Assembly: GCA_038087875.1 (NCBI GenBank) | Contig: CM075990.1 | Location: 16,742,001 to 16,806,000 of the forward strand | Length of the DNA stretch: 64,000 bases | Origin: Malacoraja senta | Lineage: Eukaryota | Direction: 5' to 3' | Shown: positions 316-63,444 of the stretch, piece after piece | How positions within the stretch are numbered: the first letter of the stretch is position 1 | Layout of the letters: every line of letters starts with the position of its first letter | The notes under the pieces: generated by a model | Databases searched by the model: none | What the model was told of the DNA's origin: nothing | Seen by the model: only the letters and a program-made list of their open reading frames with translations | Program-made: the position numbers and the translations under genes

Positions 316-2704
316 ATGCTGTGACATTGGTATTTTATTACTGTCACATCATACCGTCTATACGGTGAGAAGCTTTTGTTCTCATGCCATACAGTCCTAG
401 CCTGCTCAATCTCTCCCCTATAGCTCAGGCCCTCAAGTCCTGGCAACATCCTTGCAAATCATTTCTGCATTCATTGTGAAGCGTGTTTAGATTATATTTC
501 TTTGGGAGTTTTTTGTAATATGACCATTGAAAATACTATTGATATCATACAATACATGATGCCAGCCGTACACAGGTGCAAATAGTTCAAAGTGAAAAAT
601 GCCAGAGTGCAGAATATAGTGTAACATTGTAATAGCATTACGGTCACAGTGAAAGTGCAGATAAGAAAAAGTGTAAGGTCGGCAATGAGGTAGGTCGAGG
701 GATCAGAAATAGCACCCTAGCTTATGAGAAGACCGATCAGTAGTCGGATAACACCAGGGAAGAAGCTGTTTCTGAATCTAGTGGCACGTGCTTTCAAGCT
801 TTTTTATCTTCTGCCAGATAGGAGAGGGGGGAAGAAAGGGGGGGGTGGTAGAAGGTCCGTGATTATGTCGGCTGCTTTCCCGTGGCAGTGTGAAGTGTAG
901 ATGGGTCGATGGCAGAGAGTCTTGTCTGTGTGCGGCTTCTTGAAATCATCATTGAATGTTAGACTGATTTAGTGTCGACCTCAGCTGCATTTACTAATAC
1001 ACCCCGTCCCTGGATAATGAATGGGTTCTGTTATTACAGAGGTCCATAAGTTGATTATATCCATACGTCAGAAAGTAAACATCCACAGTGTTGTGATGAA
1101 TAGCATCAAAGCACGCAAGACTGAGAAGAAAGAACAATTACTAAAAGTGGAGAGAGCATGGAAACTAGTCCTGTCGATGATAGGAACTAGCGCACAAATG
1201 TCAGACATTTGAATGTAATAATATTGTGGGTGCTTGTTCGTGCGTAAGAGTGTCCAGAAGTCGGGGCTTCAAAACTTGGGGACAGCCTGTCTAGTGATAA
1301 CATTATTTAAAACCCAGTGCAGATTTTTTAAAAGCTCCAGTTTCACATGAATCCAATGCATTAAATGATGCGTGTTAAAGCCCTTGTGGTTTTCCAGTTA
1401 GCAACAACTGGAACTTGGAACAGTATAGCACAGGAACAGGCCCTTCGACCCACAATGTTTGTATCGAACATGATGCGAAATTAAACGGATCTCATCTGCG
1501 TGTACATGATCCATATCCCGCTAATCCCTGCACTTTCACATGCCTATCTTAAAGTCTATTAAATGCCACGATCCTATCTGACCACCACCACCCCAGCAGC
1601 ATATTCCAGGCCCCCACCACTCTCTGTGGAACAATAGTTTACGGCATCTCCATTAAACTTTCCCCCTCTCACATTATAGCTATTTCCGCTGGAGTTGGAC
1701 ATTTCTACCCCATCTGTGTCCGTCATGTCTCTTGGCTAACCATCCCTAGGAGGCAAACCACCATTGCTTTACACCGCATCTTAGAGCTGAAATACTCGTT
1801 CAGTTACAACAGGGATCCTGAGAAGCGTTCAGAAGATACCAATCCACCCCTAGCTGCCCGACCAGCAGCAATAAACACTGCTCCAACTGTGATTTACGGC
1901 ACTGTTAATATGAGGTTTCTCCAAGACAGGGATATGTGGCGATACTTAAATGAATTGGATTGACCTGCACAATTGCCTAGTCCACGTGCTGTAATCATTC
2001 ACTTCAGCTTTTGACCAGGAAACTAGACGAACAGTGACGTGACTCTAAAGTTGCTGATTGTCCTCATGGCCGAGCCTCAAGTCGCTGGCTTTTCCATGGA
2101 GCACAACATGACTGTAACCAGTCAGACAGTCAGAACCTTTAGCCCGGGGTGGCAATGTGAGAAACTAGAGGGCACAGCTTTAAGTCGAGAGGGGCAAAGT
2201 TTAAAGGAGAAGTTGTTTTGTTTAGACAGAAGGTGGTGAGTTCCTGGAACACGCTGCCATGGGTGGTGGTGGAGGCAGATGGAACAGTGGCATTTAAGCA
2301 GCTTTTAGGTTGACACATGATATGCGGGGATTGGTGACAATGGAGGGGTATGGATCACGTGCAGGCAGAGGAGACTCATTTAATTTGGCATCGTGTTCAG
2401 TGCGGACATTGCGGGCTGTCTGCAATGTCTGCCTCATCCCAAGGGTGGCGAATAGTTGCCCCTATTGCATAGGCCGTGTAGACTCTGGGGGGAGTTGACA
2501 GGACTTCAGGGAGAACAGGCTCCCAGGGAAAGTTAGTGGGGAATGGGATTGTGAGAGAAATGGGTGGGACACAAAGAGAGGAGGTTACCCAAAATTGCCG
2601 GATGGGTGGACAAAACTCAAAGATGAAAAGATAACAAAAGGTTATGAGATAGGGAGAGAAGAGGACTGGAGTCTTCCTGACTTTATGAAGCCCCAATAAC
2701 AACT

Positions 2705-3994
2705 GTGGAGAAGATGGAGCGAACCATAACTTCATACGTGAAGAAATGGCTCGGTGTCCCACGATGTCTAACTAACATCGGCCTCTATGGCAAAGGGGTC
2801 CTGGAACTACCTCTCACTAGTCTAACAGAGGAATATAAGTGTTCTAAAGTAAGACTCCAGATGACACTGAGGGACTCTAGAGACAAGATCATCAGTGCTG
2901 TTGCGCCGCCCCTAGCAACTGGCCGGAAGTGGACACCATCTGATGCAGTACAGCAAGCTTCATCAGCCCTGAGGCACAAAGACATAGTGGGGCAAGTCCA
3001 GCAGGGAAGAGGAGGCTTTGGCCTTACGACAAGTAAACCAACTTGGCGAAAGGCCACAACATCAGAGCGGAGGACGTTGGTGGTTGAGGAGGTGCGGCGA
3101 CAGGAGGAGGCCGCAAGAAGTGCAAAGGCGGTCTCTCTTGCCAAGCAGGGGCAATGGATGCAGTGGGAAGGTGTGGAGCGGAGGAAGATCAGCTGGAAAG
3201 AACTATGGGAAATGGAAGCAAGCAAGATCAGCTTCATCATCAGAGCGACATATGACGTGCTTCCATCACCAAAGAACCTCCATCAGTGGTACGGCGAGGA
3301 TCCAACCTGTGCCATCTGCCCAACTCCAGCGACCCTCAAACACATCATGGTAGGCTGCAAGACCAGCCTCACGCAAGGGAGATACACGTGGCGGCATAAT
3401 CAGGTACTAAAAAGCCTGGCATCAGCCCTTGAGAACAGGCGGTGTGCGACCAACTCCTTGCCTCCGAGAGCAAGCAACCCTCCCCTAAGGGTAATAACCT
3501 TTGTCCGAGAAGGACAGAAAACTTCTAAACTTCCTTCCACCAGATCAGAAGAAGGAAGCCAATGCAGGGCCCGTGACTGGAGGATGCTGGCGGACATCGG
3601 CCGACAACTAATTTTTCCACCTGAAATTGCTTCCACCACCCTCAGGCCAGACTTGGTGTTCTGGTCCCCTTCACAGAAGACTGCTTACATCATAGAGCTC
3701 ACAGTTCCATGGGAGAACTCTGTTGAGGAGGCCTATGAGCGTAAGAAGCTGCGCTACGCAGAGCTTGCAGCAGAGGCAACGCAGCGTGGCTGGAACACCA
3801 AAGTCTATCCAGTTGAAGTGGGATGCAGAGGATTTGTTGCGTCATCTACCATCAGACTGCTGAAGGAGCTTGGAATCCACGGTCAGGCTCTGCGGAAGAC
3901 CATAAGATCACTCTCAGAGGCGGCTGAAAGAAGCAGCCGGTGGATTTGGCTCAAGCGGAAAGACCCATGCTGGGCCCCAAGTATGTCGGGGTGA
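2705..3994 (+). CDS. C-terminal part of retrotransposon polyprotein: post-RT region, CCHC zinc knuckle and restriction-like endonuclease (RT core lost by truncation)
   Basis: CAIC...LKHIMVGC zinc knuckle, RYTWRHNQVL, RPDLV...IELTVPWE...ERKKLRY PD-(D/E)xK motif; uninterrupted 429 codons. Confidence 0.85.
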   Translation: MEKMERTITSYVKKWLGVPRCLTNIGLYGKGVLELPLTSLTEEYKCSKVRLQMTLRDSRDKIISAVAPPLATGRKWTPSDAVQQASSALRHKDIVGQVQQGRGGFGLTTSKPTWRKATTSERRTLVVEEVRRQEEAARSAKAVSLAKQGQWMQWEGVERRKISWKELWEMEASKISFIIRATYDVLPSPKNLHQWYGEDPTCAICPTPATLKHIMVGCKTSLTQGRYTWRHNQVLKSLASALENRRCATNSLPPRASNPPLRVITFVREGQKTSKLPSTRSEEGSQCRARDWRMLADIGRQLIFPPEIASTTLRPDLVFWSPSQKTAYIIELTVPWENSVEEAYERKKLRYAELAAEATQRGWNTKVYPVEVGCRGFVASSTIRLLKELGIHGQALRKTIRSLSEAAERSSRWIWLKRKDPCWAPSMSG

Positions 3995-28749: not shown

Positions 28750-28884
28750 CTTCTTCTTCTTTTCGTGTCCATCTTGTTACAAATGTTGGTCTCGCTGTCA
28801 TCGTCCGTCCTGAAAAGGACGCAAGCTTCCGCCAACAATCAGTGGAAGCCATCACTTGTCTCAGTAGATGATGGTGGTAGCAGA
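28750..28884 (-). mobile_element. Short retroposon family B, 5'-truncated copy
   Basis: Body and (GAA)n tail match 53343-53476; truncated within the 3' strand of ribozyme P2. Confidence 0.8.
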
Positions 28885-31418: not shown

Positions 31419-31834
31419 ATTTCATTCAAGGCGGCGTTTCATTTGAAAATGGAAAAGAGCACTTCGGAATCAATGTTTAAGAAGGAACTGCAGATGCTGG
31501 AAAAATCGAAGGTAGACTAAATCGCTGGAGAAACTCAGCGGGTGCGGCAGCATCTATGGAGCGAAGGAAATAGGCAACGTTTCGTCCCGAAACGTTGCCT
31601 ATTTCCTTCGCTCCATAGATGCTGCCGCACCCGCTGAGTTTGTTTCTCCAGCAATTTTGTCTAACTTCGGAATCTATGTGTGTTCCTTCCCTTAAAGGGG
31701 CTTGAGAGACAATGGCGAGGGAACTGACTGCAAACGTGGCGCACACACACACACACACACAACACACACTGGAGTCTGCAAATGACATTTACAGCTCATG
31801 GCAGCGCCGGGCAAAATAGCAGGGAAAGACAGGA

Positions 31835-38260: not shown

Positions 38261-38406
38261 AGACGTGTCAGGTGAAGCCTCCAATCAACACCACAAACAA
38301 CATGGGGCTGCTGGAAAACGCCGCACTCTGGAGTAAACTGAGGCCAAAGCCAAACGAGACACAGCCTGGGTCCGAATAGTGGTTTATTGGACCAATTCAC
38401 CTGCAT

Positions 38407-38606
38407 NNNNNNNNNNNNNNNNNNNNNNNNNNNNNNNNNNNNNNNNNNNNNNNNNNNNNNNNNNNNNNNNNNNNNNNNNNNNNNNNNNNNNNNNNNNNNN
38501 NNNNNNNNNNNNNNNNNNNNNNNNNNNNNNNNNNNNNNNNNNNNNNNNNNNNNNNNNNNNNNNNNNNNNNNNNNNNNNNNNNNNNNNNNNNNNNNNNNNN
38601 NNNNNN
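38407..38606. other. Assembly gap (200 N)
   Basis: Run of N. Confidence 1.
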
Positions 38607-40492
38607 CATGCTGCCTAGAATTGCCACGGGAGTTCTCGTTGCCAGCTTTGAGACCCAAAAGGCGGGTTCTAATTACTGTCTGCCCAGAACTGCTTTCACA
38701 ACTTGCATTCTCAGCTCCTCCGTAGCCCTGATGCCATTTCAGGCACTTAAAGTGGAAGCAATTTTCCTTGGGCTGCCTCAGCCAAAAAATGTCAGGAGTG
38801 GCATTTAACCAAGTCCAGACTCGGCTTGTTCATTAAGTCACTGTTTCCATGTGGAATTGTTTCTTGCTCCCAAAAGCAGCCTAACAACCTGCGGCTGGAG
38901 AACTATGCACTATAAATTCTCTCTTCATGTATACACTGGTAGTCATGGACGTTACTTCAAAGGCAGCACAATGTTTATTTTTCATTTTGTGAACTTCCCA
39001 CACTGATTTCACGGAATCTTGAAGGATGTTAAATTGAATTCTGCATTAAAACTTGCTTTAAATGCTCACGAGAAATTAAACTCAGGTTGTTTTGACTGGA
39101 AGAGTCAAGGATGAAATTAGTTCTAATGGAAGAGTCAGTCTGGAGCTTGCTCTAGAAATAGTGAGTAGCTTGCTGGCATGGAGGTCAGGTTACTAGACCA
39201 AGAGCCAGATTATTGATCTGGAGATGGGTGCTCAAATCACCTCCACCTAATCCTGTTTTCCTATTCCTATTTCCTGACCACAACCATTATCCGAAGGGAT
39301 ACTACGTTAAGGAGATCATGGATCAACTCTGTGCTTGCATAAACTCCCCATTTGTAGAGTCACTATTAATTTAGACTATGGAGTCAGCGACCTGCAGTTT
39401 GAGAGTGACCTCAATTTCACGAGCATTCACAGTCCTATTTCCCAGTCTAGAGGGTTCTAAATCTAAAGGGCATAGACTTAAGATGAGAGGAGGGGGACAC
39501 TGTGAGAGGAGTCTGTATTTGCAATGAGCTGCCTGAGGGGTTATAGATACAATTACAATTTTTTTAAAAGACTTTTGGATAGATAATATGGACAAGAAGG
39601 ATGTAGAGGACTAGAATGCAGGCAACTGAGACTAGTCCAGAATGCCAGCTTGGTCAGCATCGACAGGGTGGGCTGAAGGGCCTGTTGCTTTGATGTATAG
39701 CTCTACGACTCGATGACACCCGTGGAATTTGTGACTAAATCCTTTGTGTACATTTCAATAATACCACAGATGACAAACCTTCTCGGATAAAGGAATTCTC
39801 ATTTGAAAGCTCGGTTTGAAAGCACCAAAGTGTTGAGATGACGAACGTTCCATACGGGGCATTCTCTCCCTTTCCTCCCACGTTCATAAGATGAGCCGAA
39901 AACGTAGGCACATCCTGATCCCCTTCATCTTCATTCATCTATCGTGTCAAAATTCTTTTTGCCGATTGATTCACCATCAACAGAGGGAAATATGCGAGGA
40001 ATTCCACAATATTACTGAGAATTTCCACAGCACTTAGAGAAGACGACCTGCTGGAGTAAACTGTGTCGGGATAGACCTGGTGTAAGGCAGCATCTTGGGT
40101 TGATGGGATGGAGTGGTAGAGGTGGCGGGAATACTGGAGTTCAAATCTTGGCATCTGGTGACGTGGTTGCTACTGCCAGAATTGCCAAAATCGAGGATGA
40201 ACAGGAGGCCAGATCTAGAGGAACATAGAGGTGTTTATATTCATTACTGAGATCCAGTTGTCCCAGGCAAGGCCTGCATCTCTTTCCCACCCTTCGAGTC
40301 ACACGGCATGGTCCTTTGGCCCAACTCGTCCATACCTATTAAGATGCCCATCTACTCAAGTCGCAATGAACCCATATCCCTCTGAACCTTTCCAATCCAC
40401 GTAACTGTCCAGATATCCCTCAAGTGTTATTATTGAACATGACTCAACAACTTCCTCTGGCAGCTCCTGCCGTGAAGCTCAATGAAGCCCAT

Positions 40493-49572: not shown

Positions 49573-50137
49573 CTATTCCATGGTGTTAACAGTTAGTAGA
49601 AGACAAAATCGTTTTTGGCATCATGCTTCAGGATGGATTATAAAACCCAGGCTGAGATTTTTGGGCAAATGCTTTAATGTTTTAGATACTCAGCAGGTAC
49701 ACTCACACCTCAAGGACTGCAACGGTTCAAGTAGGCAGCACAACGCCTCCTTCTCAGGGCAACCAGGGAATGGCAATTAAATGCTGGCTCAGCCCACAAA
49801 GCCCACATCCAGTGGAGATGGAAACAGAGTTCGTGATTCATGTGGATCATTCTTCATCGGAACTGTAATCATCTTATAAGTTGCAGAGAGAGGTACAGGT
49901 GGAGAGAATGTTTGTGACACAGTGGCAGATGTGTCACCAGTTGGCACAGTGGGGCAGCGGTAGAGTTGCTGCCTCATAGCGCCAGAGACCCAGGTTCGAT
50001 CCTGACCACGGGTGCCGTTTGTACGGAGTTTGTACATTCACCCCGTTTTCTCCGGATGCTTCAGTTTCCTCCCACAATCCAAAGACGTACAGGTTTGTAA
50101 CTTAATTGGCTTTGGTAAAAATTGTAAATTGTCCCTA

Positions 50138-50797
50138 GTACCTTGCACATTGCACCTTGCACCTTGCACCTTGTACCTTGTACCTTGTACCTTGTCCCTT
50201 GCACCTTGTACCTTGTACATTGTACATTGTACCTTGTCCCTTGTACCTTGTCCCTTGCACCTTGTACCTTGTACCTTGTCCCTTGCACCTTGTACCTTGT
50301 ACCTTGTACCTTGTACCTTGTCCCTTGCACCTTGTACCTTGTCCCTTGCACCTTGTACCTTGTACATTGTACCTTGTCCCTTGTACCTTGTACCTTGTCC
50401 CTTGCACCTTGTACCTTGTCCCTTGTACCTTGTACCTTGTCCCTTGCACCTTGTACCTTGTACCTTGCACCTTGTACCTTGTCCCTTGCACCTTGTACCT
50501 TGTACCTTGCACCTTGTACCTTGTCCCTTGCACCTTGTACCTTGCACCTTGCACCTTGCACCTTGTCCCTTGTACCTTGTACCTTGCACCTTGTCCCATG
50601 TACCTTGTCCCTTGTACCTTGTACCTTGTACCTTGTGAAGAGTCCACCAGGGACTATACTGGAAGTTGGACAATGTACCTTGCACCTTGTACCTTGTGAA
50701 GAGTCCACCAGGGACTATACTGGAAGTTGGACAATTTACCTTGCACCTTGTACCTTGTGAAGAGTCCACCAGGGACTATACTGGAAGTTGGACAATT
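50138..50797. repeat. 7-mer minisatellite (CCTTG-TA/CA/TC)n followed by three 61-bp units
   Basis: GAAGAGTCCACCAGGGACTATACTGGAAGTTGGACAAT at 50637, 50698 and 50759. Confidence 0.95.
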
Positions 50798-53148: not shown

Positions 53149-53342
53149 TTGAACCTGGTGGTCACGGTTTTCAAGGTCTTGTTTCGTCTTCCCGACTTTC
53201 CTTGTTGAGCACATCCGCCACTTTGAGCTGGACCGCTGGTGTAGGATTGGGAGGGACCATCCTCTTCATTGCTGTCCAAGTTTGCCACCCATTGGCCTCA
53301 CCAAGACACAAGTTGAGTCGTAATCTATCCTGCATAGAAATC

Positions 53343-53535
53343 CTCTTCTTCTTTTCGTGTCCATCCTGTTACAAATGTTGACATCGCTGTCATCGTCCGT
53401 CTGAAAAGGACGCAAGCTTCCGGCGACAATCAGTGGGAGCCATCACTTGTTGCAATAGATGATGGTGGTAGCAGAATTAGCTCAGGATACTTCCAGTTTC
53501 CAGCCCCGCGACGTGGACGCTTCTGCTATGGGGCC
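53343..53535 (-). mobile_element. Ribozyme-headed short retroposon family B (full length)
   Basis: (GAA)n tail; 11-bp TSD TGCATAGAAAT 53331-53341 / TGCACGGAAAT 53536-53546. Confidence 0.8.
53469..53535 (-). ncRNA. CPEB3-like HDV-family ribozyme (predicted)
   Basis: GGCCCC A UAGCAGAA GCG UCCACGU CGC GGGGCU GG [P4] CUAA UUCUGCUA. Confidence 0.8.
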
Positions 53536-54204
53536 TGCACGGAAATAGGACCATGGAAGGCACATCAACCATCAACAGTCCCATACTACAAGCACCATCC
53601 TACATCTGCACTAAACCTCTACTATTTTCACCACTTCCCCATCAACAACACCCAGCTTGTATCACCCTCCTCCACAAGGAACAAAATACAGTGTCTAATT
53701 AATATTCCAGCCCGTACTTCTCTGGAGGTGAAACAAGAAGCTCTTTGGACATTGCTTCATCCCGTACCTATTGTGCTGAATGATTCTAACAGGTTTTACA
53801 ATATGGTGTGTCTTTAATAATCCATCTGGTGAATATTCTGTTCTAAGTCTATCCTTCCTTGCGTAGAACGTGTGGCAGCTGTACGCAATGTTCCAGATGT
53901 GGTCCTAGCAGGGCCACTAACGGGACCCAAGCAGATGCTTGGCAGGAGCAATGTCTTTCAGCCAGAGGTTAGACTTGGGCAGCAAATGTGAGCACAGCTC
54001 AGAGGCAGTGCCATTCATTCGAAGGGTGAAACTCATATAGACGCACATGCCTCAAATCAAGGGAACCTTTAGCTTTGCAATTGTCATCATAGTTTGGTGA
54101 TAACTCTGGCTTCAGTAGAGAGGATATCAAATCAGCCACTATTGTGCTGATTTTCATAAACAACCTGGCAACATTCCTGTTTATGGTATGCTTGCCCACA
54201 TTGA

Positions 54205-62043: not shown

Positions 62044-62175
62044 TAAGAGTCAAGAGTGGCGCAGTGGAAGAGCCGCTGCCTCACGGCGCCCAGAGATCCG
62101 GGTTCCGATCCTGACTGCAGGGTGCTGTCTGTGTGGAGTTTGCACGTTCTCACCCGACCGCGTGGGTTTTTCTCC

Positions 62176-62375
62176 NNNNNNNNNNNNNNNNNNNNNNNNN
62201 NNNNNNNNNNNNNNNNNNNNNNNNNNNNNNNNNNNNNNNNNNNNNNNNNNNNNNNNNNNNNNNNNNNNNNNNNNNNNNNNNNNNNNNNNNNNNNNNNNNN
62301 NNNNNNNNNNNNNNNNNNNNNNNNNNNNNNNNNNNNNNNNNNNNNNNNNNNNNNNNNNNNNNNNNNNNNNNNNNN
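62176..62375. other. Assembly gap (200 N)
   Basis: Run of N. Confidence 1.
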
Positions 62376-63444
62376 TAATTAAATTTATACATGGTTACCT
62401 ATTAATTCAAGTACTCTGAATCACCCCTAATCCTAGTGTTCTGCTGGACATGCAGTGCCTTCCATCAGTTCTGGTTGAGGGAAGTGCCGCCTGCTGTTTT
62501 TTGTAGGTTTATCATCCAAAGCACTGGTCAGCGTTCAAACGATGTGTTGCCACAGCTGGTAGAGTGTGAGAGTGTGAAAGAACCAAGTTCAATCCTGATA
62601 TCGGGTGCTGTCTGTGTGGAGTTTGCACATTCTCCCTGTGACTCTTTGTGGGTTCTCACCGGGCGCTCCATCCCAAAGATGTAGGGGGTTTGTAGGTTAA
62701 TTGGCCCTCTGTATAAATTGCTCCTAGAGTGTACGGAGTGGATGAGAAAGTGGGATAACATAGAACTGGTGTGAACGGGTGATCGATGGTTGGCATGGAC
62801 TCGGTGGGCCGAAGGGCCTCTTTCCAAGCTGCATCTCCAAACCAAGCTACAGCTAAACCTGCACCTAAAGCACAGATCGACCACTTCTCCATTTAGTGTG
62901 TGTGTGTTGGTGCAAACACAACAAGTGGTGCAGTTGCCAACGAAACAATCCATGTGCTGAAAGCTAGTTCCGAGCAGCACCACGGACTGCATCACACAAG
63001 ATGGCTTTTTTGGTTTAAATCTTCACATAAAAGGAGAACAGCGGTCCTTATACCTGGGACTGCCCGTCCAGAAGCCCCAACAGGGTAGAATTATTGAACA
63101 TGTCTCAAACACCACAGAGCTGTTGGCACAAACATATTTTGTCCCCGCACACAAGGAAAGGAATATAAAATTTCTAGAAACCCATTAGATAACGGAGAAT
63201 ACTTCAAAGCATCTCAGTTATTTGTAGTTATAATTAGGTTATTTGGCTGGAAGATAGGAAATGAGTACGTGGATGGTGCCTGCTGTGCATGTTGCCAGAG
63301 CGTTCAATGTCATTGATGTCCTTTTGTGTTCCATTGCTTTCATCTTTCGAGGACCAGTTGCTATGAATCTTTTGGGACTTTGGGGAAATTACTCTGCATA
63401 TTATCACTACAGCCACTCTTGGTCAAGAGGGATATAGAGTAATT

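Follow-up and report, generated by a model that had tools for sequence, protein, structure and literature searches.

A non-coding retroposon with a CPEB3-type ribozyme fold at its head in a cartilaginous fish genome

The 64,000-nucleotide stretch of Malacoraja senta DNA analysed here (contig CM075990.1; "the window" below means this whole stretch) carries on its minus strand, at 53342-53535, a full-length non-coding retroposon of 194 nucleotides (nt), flanked by an 11-bp target-site duplication. The first 67 nt of the element constitute the ribozyme and accommodate the nested double pseudoknot known from the ribozyme of hepatitis delta virus (HDV); a preliminary description of the locus had placed this fold on the minus strand from 53535, and every helix that it listed can form. 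From 53535 to 53469 the minus strand reads GGCCCC AUAGCAGAA GCG UCCACGU CGC GGGGCU GG ... CUAA UUCUGCUA, and the 3' terminus of the element is GGACACGAAAAGAAGAAGAGG (53362-53342). Cleavage is presumed to fall directly 5' of G1 (53535). In the following list the element is numbered from G1, and LINE stands for long interspersed element.

53536-53546, minus strand: 5' copy of the target-site duplication, ATTTCCGTGCA, adjoining G1; 9 of 11 positions match 53341-53331
53469-53535, minus strand: HDV-fold ribozyme of CPEB3 type, 67 nt; 34.9 bits on the Rfam model RF00622, with P1, P2 and P3 covariation across 17 ribozymes
53530-53535, minus strand: 5' strand of P1, GGCCCC, pairing with GGGGCU at 53502-53507 (element nt 1-6 with 29-34)
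53521-53528, minus strand: 5' strand of P2, UAGCAGAA, pairing as a pseudoknot with UUCUGCUA at 53469-53476 (element nt 8-15 with 60-67)
53508-53520, minus strand: P3, GCG/CGC, around the loop L3, UCCACGU (element nt 16-18 with 26-28)
53477-53480, minus strand: J4/2, CUAA, with the putative catalytic C56 at 53480; in alignment A2 this C is conserved to at least 90%
53481-53499, minus strand: short P4 of 3-4 bp, as read from the sequence
53394-53413, minus strand: body hairpin; family majority CGTCC TTTTCA GGACG
53342-53362, minus strand: 3' box GGACACGAAAAG with (AAG)n tail, common to autonomous LINEs; its final 17 nt are the same as those of LINE family A
53331-53341, minus strand: 3' copy of the target-site duplication, ATTTCTATGCA, as read from the sequence
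28753-28884, minus strand: a further copy of this family, truncated at its 5' end (element nt 61-191), 91.7% identical

The individual parts agree with what is expected of HDV-like ribozymes: P1 comprises 6 bp including a G1-U34 wobble, P2 forms a pseudoknot of 8 bp, a 3-bp P3 closes a 7-nt L3, and J4/2 holds a C (C56) that would be catalytic judging by its position. P1.1 can form in the window copy as 2 bp, CC/GG, between C20 and C21 of L3 and G35 and G36 (53501-53500). The (GAA)n tail and the 11-bp target-site duplication with two mismatches are as first described, both mismatches being transitions inside one CpG, and the second, truncated copy reported earlier is also present, retaining just the last 7 nt of the ribozyme. 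The body hairpin of the window copy is short of one G, an extra base found in about half of the contigs aligned, and a TTTT run lies inside the element body. No head of tRNA, 5S or 7SL type was seen, RF00622 being the sole Rfam match at E<=10 in 53300-53650; by its sequence the element falls outside the strict definition of a short interspersed element (SINE), which includes a polymerase III head.

Support for the fold comes from the covariance model and from covariation, not from thermodynamics. A gathering-threshold Rfam scan of the window gave no matches. An E-value scan placed RF00622, the CPEB3 ribozyme, at 53541-53470 on the minus strand, with an E-value of 8.3e-8 for a 351-nt region and of 1.5e-5 for the whole window and 4227 families; within 53300-53650 no further ribozyme family and no other HDV-type model appeared at E<=10. 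The comparison with the Rfam CPEB3 model that had been suggested for the locus thus returned that model and no other, at a score under its cut-off.

Covariation was assessed in an alignment of 17 ribozymes drawn from the window copy, five other families of the same genome and five 5' ends of LINE relatives from metagenome contigs. Pairs were counted for P1, P2 (as a pseudoknot), P3 and P1.1, with 500 shuffles and slid partners as controls. The proportion of paired cells was 84.8% (72.5 +/- 1.2 in shuffles), pairs changed on both sides numbered 13 of 20 (7.6 +/- 1.5) and the covariation score was 0.430 (0.184); none of the 500 shuffles equalled the alignment on any of these measures, and structures with partners shifted by 1-3 columns had 38-49% of cells paired. 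Compensatory changes affect four of the seven pairs of P1, six of the eight of P2 and two of the three of P3, so that all three helices covary, as the proposed check had envisaged. Cells are paired at 85.3% in P2 and 94.1% in P3, and the inner pair of P1.1 is C-G in 14 of the 17 sequences. The aligned sequences are related and the structure was drawn from them, so the controls somewhat overstate independence; despite this kinship, P1 and P2 differ between families by compensatory changes that are readily seen. Directly after the 3' strand of P2, almost all families from the genome and the metagenome have ACCAC or AACAC (A2 columns 87-93; window 53464-53468), a recurrence that suggests a conserved function just beyond the ribozyme.

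The genome assembly searched for further copies comprises 1.94 Gb. Its RAG1 is a single open reading frame (ORF) of 1027 amino acids (aa), 96% identical to that of a skate, 84% to those of a stingray and an electric ray and 80-81% to those of sharks, which makes the host a skate-like ray. With a 216-nt stretch as the query, 2070 first-look candidates were obtained; the 40 that were scored, the window copy among them, are 95-100% identical. The 30 best-scoring copies all have nt 1 as their first position, which is G in 29 of them and A in the other, and most have perfect duplications of 9-14 bp, adjoining nt 1 on one side and following the (AAG)n tail on the other. This best-scoring set is biased toward complete copies, and the family was therefore resampled from the 3' side. 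A tag of 20 nt (element nt 162-181) matches the genome exactly at 340 places, its reversed form at none, so that the element does belong to a family, as proposed.

The first 44 of these 340 places form a sample not selected for complete 5' ends. Thirty-six of the 44 copies begin at G1, four of them with internal or 1-nt deletions, which bears out the claim that the element begins exactly there; three others start at nt 2, one at nt 4 and one at nt 8, and the remaining three are truncated at nt 50, 58 and 128. Upstream read-through was seen in none of the 44, which include five pairs of segmental duplicates and are 89.6-96.9% identical to the window copy. Contigs from all four public runs, representing four organisms, cover only 53336-53539; those that diverge past 53535 into mutually unlike sequence number 142 in run X19, which may be the source sample of the window itself, 18 in X1, seven in X6 and one in X5. 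The family is thus multi-copy, with about a thousand or more young copies, and its dispersed copies with target-site duplications are in keeping with a bipartite non-autonomous LINE, a class defined with RTE, Ingi, Vingi and R2 as the producing clades (PMC5786205). Upstream of one copy (L175, G000:C2:2573127-2573284), a run of about 16 G merges with G1-G2.

Related ribozymes are present elsewhere in the genome. When RF00622 was applied to it, 39 of the 59 candidates scored lay above the cut-off, which was set on mammalian seed sequences, and the best reached 64.2 bits. Sorting by eye gave at least five families besides that of the window, with cores GCGUUCACGUCGC or close variants such as GCAUUCACGUUGC and GCGUUCUCGUCGU. 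The sequences of P1 and P2 vary between families with their complementarity kept, and in most ACCAC comes next. The related LINE ribozymes have a long P4, whereas family E, like minimal HDV-like ribozymes, has almost none. Family E (L051, L053, L057-L060, L181-L187) is a ribozyme-headed element of about 170 nt with target-site duplications and a GACTCGATAAGAAG tail; in most of its copies P1 contains a U-C mismatch or is shifted in register.

Autonomous LINEs also carry such heads. LINE family A, 3.14 kb in length, begins at G1 of its own ribozyme and was found in three copies that are 98% alike. One of them has an ORF of 934 aa, whose protein matched Exo_endo_phos and RVT_1 and not RNase H; in two others the frame takes in a CxCG...H...C motif and ends about 25 nt short of the 3' end. 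The last 17 nt of this LINE are identical to those of the short element, so that the two have a 3' end in common. A second lineage, L189, has a family-B ribozyme at its head, a target-site duplication of its own and segments 44-55% identical in protein sequence to LINE family A; its 3' end is TAAGGACACGAAAGAAAAAG, with the box GGACACGAAAG(A)n / GGACACGAAA. Both LINEs finish in the 3' box of the short element, GACACGAAA(A)G, followed by an AAG or A-rich tail. The C-terminal CxCG...H...C motif of family A presumably leans toward Vingi. In the partner LINE, a length of about 3.1 kb, one ORF for both endonuclease and reverse transcriptase and the lack of an RNase H match suit RTE and Vingi alike, and it could be of either clade. 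Both are described as compact, single-ORF elements with these two activities (PMC13708176, PMC5786205).

A search for autonomous LINEs with both termini of the short element, also proposed at the outset, succeeded in part: the 3' box is the same and the 5' ribozymes are related, but no identical 5' sequence was found. Only the ribozyme type and the tail are common to the short element and LINE family A, and for the 5' part blastn gave no match to that LINE beyond an 18-nt ribozyme core. At none of the 44 tag-anchored places does LINE sequence lie upstream; all align to the short element. The order of ribozyme, spacer and TTTTCA-loop hairpin is common to the short element and related LINEs, the hairpin being GGTC TTTTTCAA GACC or GGCCC TTTTCA GGGCC at the ORF start of LINE B and several relatives. 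Because the body hairpin of the short element resembles this hairpin at LINE ORF starts, an arrangement joining the 5' part of a LINE to a LINE 3' end is plausible; we can only infer an origin by internal deletion of a LINE, because no LINE with a matching 5' region was found. L189 was the sole place returned by a DNA search with the 5' untranslated and ORF-start sequence of the best-matching metagenome LINE (L120 and its relatives), and it was rejected as the parent LINE of the window family, being headed by a family-B ribozyme. TTTTCA-loop hairpins were noted near the ORF start in L107, L111, L137 and L139, at L189:226-245 and at window 53394-53413; against the histone 3' stem-loop RF00032 they score 33.6 bits at L137:1185-1231 (cut-off 34) and 21-23 bits at ORF starts.

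Beyond this genome, 306 protein relatives of the LINE were found at E<=1e-10 among 8000 candidates scored, the best 120 of the 306 being 46-87% identical. Those named among the matches listed come from aphids, psyllids, moths, crabs, sea urchins, a starfish, amphioxus, a notothenioid fish and an anole; a protein atlas matched the ORF only as "reverse transcriptase", commonest in Chordata or Arthropoda. A scan of metagenome contigs yielded 70 loci encoding LINE relatives, and 18 of them, with usable 5' regions, were covered by an Rfam scan. RF00622 lies just upstream of the ORF at 55.6 bits in L120, L121 and L122 (three records of one sequence), at 30.5 bits in L108, at 23.4 bits in L125 and L126 and, as a partial match, at 23.1 bits in L106. 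In L111 and L107 the ribozyme is of another HDV-like type, resembling RF02682 (39.9 and 30.9 bits). L120 and its relatives L125 and L128 are without a long ORF. A model built from the 17-sequence alignment matched 13 of the 70 loci, five of which belonged to its training set, all on the coding strand and just upstream of the ORF, with no matches elsewhere in 217 kb. In another metagenome relative (L109:1-85), a direct duplication of about 21 nt, GTGTAGTTACGTGGTTATGAA, stands in place of the 5' half of the ribozyme. Two further contigs, L104 and L105, encode a protein 86% identical to that of LINE family A and probably come from a closely related host.

The feature is, with high confidence, a full-length and young bipartite non-autonomous LINE of about 190 nt, ORF-less, presumably released by its ribozyme and mobilised by a LINE, and SINE-like without a polymerase III head. 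The element would be transcribed within a longer host or read-through transcript, in which the 5' HDV-fold ribozyme of CPEB3 type would cut directly 5' of G1, leaving a released RNA that begins with an intact ribozyme. The reverse transcriptase of the 3.1-kb LINEs of the same genome may then recognise the 3' box GACACGAAAAG(AAG)n, and target-primed reverse transcription would copy the RNA back to G1, giving each new copy a complete ribozyme and target-site duplications of 9-14 bp. Release by the ribozyme is proposed because full-length copies begin at the cleavage nucleotide defined by the fold, in families A and E as well. From sequence we infer self-cleavage, co-transcription, promoter independence and the identity of the mobilising LINE.

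Several observations weigh against this interpretation. The window copy falls 0.1 bit short of the RF00622 cut-off of 35 bits, and its pseudoknot-free minimum-energy fold over 67 nt is no better than shuffled sequence (z 0.28), in a calculation that ignores pseudoknots and is uninformative for a fold of this kind. P4 has just 3-4 bp, J4/2 reads CUAA where the CPEB3 consensus has CGAA, and the outer pair of P1.1 is C-G in only 3 of the 17 sequences, the row of the window copy standing one column off register. The 5' region of the window family has only its ribozyme type and hairpin layout in common with any LINE found, and a start at G1 would also fit transcription from an internal promoter. 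A merely accidental likeness of an ordinary repeat to the ribozyme fold could draw on the score just under the cut-off and on the unremarkable energy fold; it is nevertheless extremely improbable given the E-value of 1.5e-5 over the whole window and all 4227 families, the strong covariation relative to both shuffled and slid controls, and the same motif at the same place in distant LINE relatives.

An internal promoter within the first 70 nt or so deserves somewhat more attention, although we consider it improbable as well. It would set the start at G1 and leave the fold as an inactive relic or with a second role, such as protection of the 5' end or protein binding. Taken alone, the pile-up of starts at G1 fits transcription initiation as well as cleavage, in L1Tc/NARTc one stretch of 77 nt acts both as promoter and as ribozyme (PMC3383444), and the window family has a short P4 and a P1 of 6 bp. 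The core, however, is kept and covaries across families and distant LINE relatives, which argues for selection on the fold, and the start coincides with the HDV-fold cleavage nucleotide in families A, E and F, whose P1 sequences differ. Nor is the 6-bp P1, which the preliminary description had taken to be unusual, out of the ordinary: the usual range is 6-7 bp, and such lengths are normal in active HDV-like ribozymes (PMC4908430). An integrated delta-like virus was considered too and fits poorly with the LINE-type target-site duplications, the LINE 3' box and the lack of an antigen ORF.

Ribozyme-released retroposons are already known, and the element as such is ordinary for its class. The short trypanosome elements NARTc and RIME have a poly(A) tail, whereas the window element has an (AAG)n tail, a vertebrate host, a CPEB3-type ribozyme and a 5' part not sequence-identical to any LINE found. 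It resembles these partners of L1Tc and Ingi in being short and ORF-less, in keeping a LINE 5' ribozyme and 3' end and in its apparent mobilisation in trans (PMC8256844, PMC5786205, PMC3383444, PMC3185411). HDV-like ribozymes are reported at the 5' ends of R2, RTE and L1Tc/NARTc, with the same release model (PMC5786205, PMC6765202, PMC8256844), and also head baggins and other LINEs (PMC6765202, PMC5786205); compared with RTE, R2 and baggins, the window element is a non-coding derivative of about 190 nt in about a thousand or more copies. Closer in form are the bipartite derivatives of RTE and Vingi (WALLSI3, RTESINE2 and the derivatives of Vingi-1_EE), which join a LINE 5' part to its 3' end in about 200-500 nt and are probably transcribed by polymerase II; the excerpt of PMC5786205 bearing on them describes no CPEB3-type ribozyme. 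The family offers a vertebrate example for studying how a 5' ribozyme replaces a promoter-defined start. Together with its relatives it also supplies natural variants for structure-function work, with P1 of 6 or 7 bp, P4 long, short or absent, and UUC/GU or UCC/GG at P1.1.

Few self-cleaving RNAs are conserved in mammals; among them is the CPEB3 ribozyme, for which a link to memory has been reported. The window ribozyme has the same fold, with the core AGCAGAAGCGU(U/C)CACGUCGC and the 3' strand AAUUCUGCU nearly identical; the CPEB3 consensus core AGCAGAAGCGUUCACGUCGC and that of the window copy, AGCAGAAGCGUCCACGUCGC, differ at one position (19 of 20 identical on comparison with Rfam), as first described. 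It is unlike the CPEB3 ribozyme in its 6-bp P1 with swapped G/C content, its short P4 and the CUAA of J4/2. It is, moreover, a multi-copy sequence at the 5' end of a retroposon in a cartilaginous fish, whereas the CPEB3 ribozyme exists as one intronic copy, is conserved as part of the host and is given in the consulted part of PMC2950038 as confined to mammals and absent from other vertebrates. Related families in the genome and in metagenome contigs pass the Rfam cut-off.

The earlier suggestion that such a family is a candidate source lineage for the CPEB3 ribozyme has gained strength from these relatives. L120 has P1 GGGGGCC/GGCCCCU and P2 GCAGAA/UUCUGC, exactly the Rfam CPEB3 consensus, and is identical to that consensus at 35 of the first 37 and 11 of the last 12 nt; the P4 stem of genome family C (CAGATTCT...GAATCTG) is close to the consensus P4. 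It is intriguing to suppose, with odds that we put slightly better than even, that the CPEB3 ribozyme of mammals was exapted from the 5' ribozyme of a member of this LINE clade or of one of its short derivatives: such an element would have inserted in sense orientation into an intron of CPEB3 along the line of descent to mammals, and only the self-cleaving head would have been kept. Convergence, in which constraint on HDV-fold cores would produce the likeness without shared descent, appears to us doubtful, if by no means far-fetched. HDV-like ribozymes are defined by their fold and few invariant nucleotides (PMC8256844, PMC2950038), the clade samples so many P1 and P2 variants that some likeness could arise by chance, and L111 and L107 carry an HDV-like type that scores on RF02682 and not on RF00622; the restriction of the CPEB3 ribozyme to mammals, as reported, also favours it. 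Yet the likeness extends to the covarying helices, and since P1 and P2 are free to vary within the clade, their identity in L120 argues for shared descent over constraint. The resemblance of the family C stem to the consensus P4 and the passing of a cut-off derived from mammalian seeds by most of the scored genome candidates, at up to 64.2 bits, point the same way.

If exaptation from this LINE clade is the true origin, the ribozymes of the clade, being old and widespread in animals, are a plausible pool for other orphan HDV-type ribozymes. The new point may be a sequence-level relative of the CPEB3 ribozyme outside mammals; its occurrence in an active-looking retroposon system and in distant LINE relatives makes the origin of the CPEB3 ribozyme a testable comparative question. 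Domestication of transposon ribozymes is treated in general terms only in the consulted part of PMC7761336, and a literature search, to which the primary papers on RTE and Vingi ribozymes were out of reach, returned no paper naming the source lineage of the CPEB3 ribozyme.

The rest of the window is rich in repeats. SINE-like and CR1-like fragments are numerous, and at 2681-3994 on the plus strand a stop-to-stop frame of 437 aa resembles the C-terminal part of another retroelement protein. A long tandem minisatellite at 50006-50775 is open in several frames on both strands, with LVPCTL-like repeats in translation, and long (CA)n, (CT)n and similar microsatellites occupy 33.1-35.1 kb and 59.5-60.4 kb. 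Runs of N, representing assembly gaps, lie at about 38400-38650 and about 62170-62380. The near-perfect palindrome at 31528-31643, with sub-threshold matches to the plant microRNA family RF04164 on both strands (45.5 and 44.4 bits, cut-off 73), is most likely an inverted repeat and not a microRNA.

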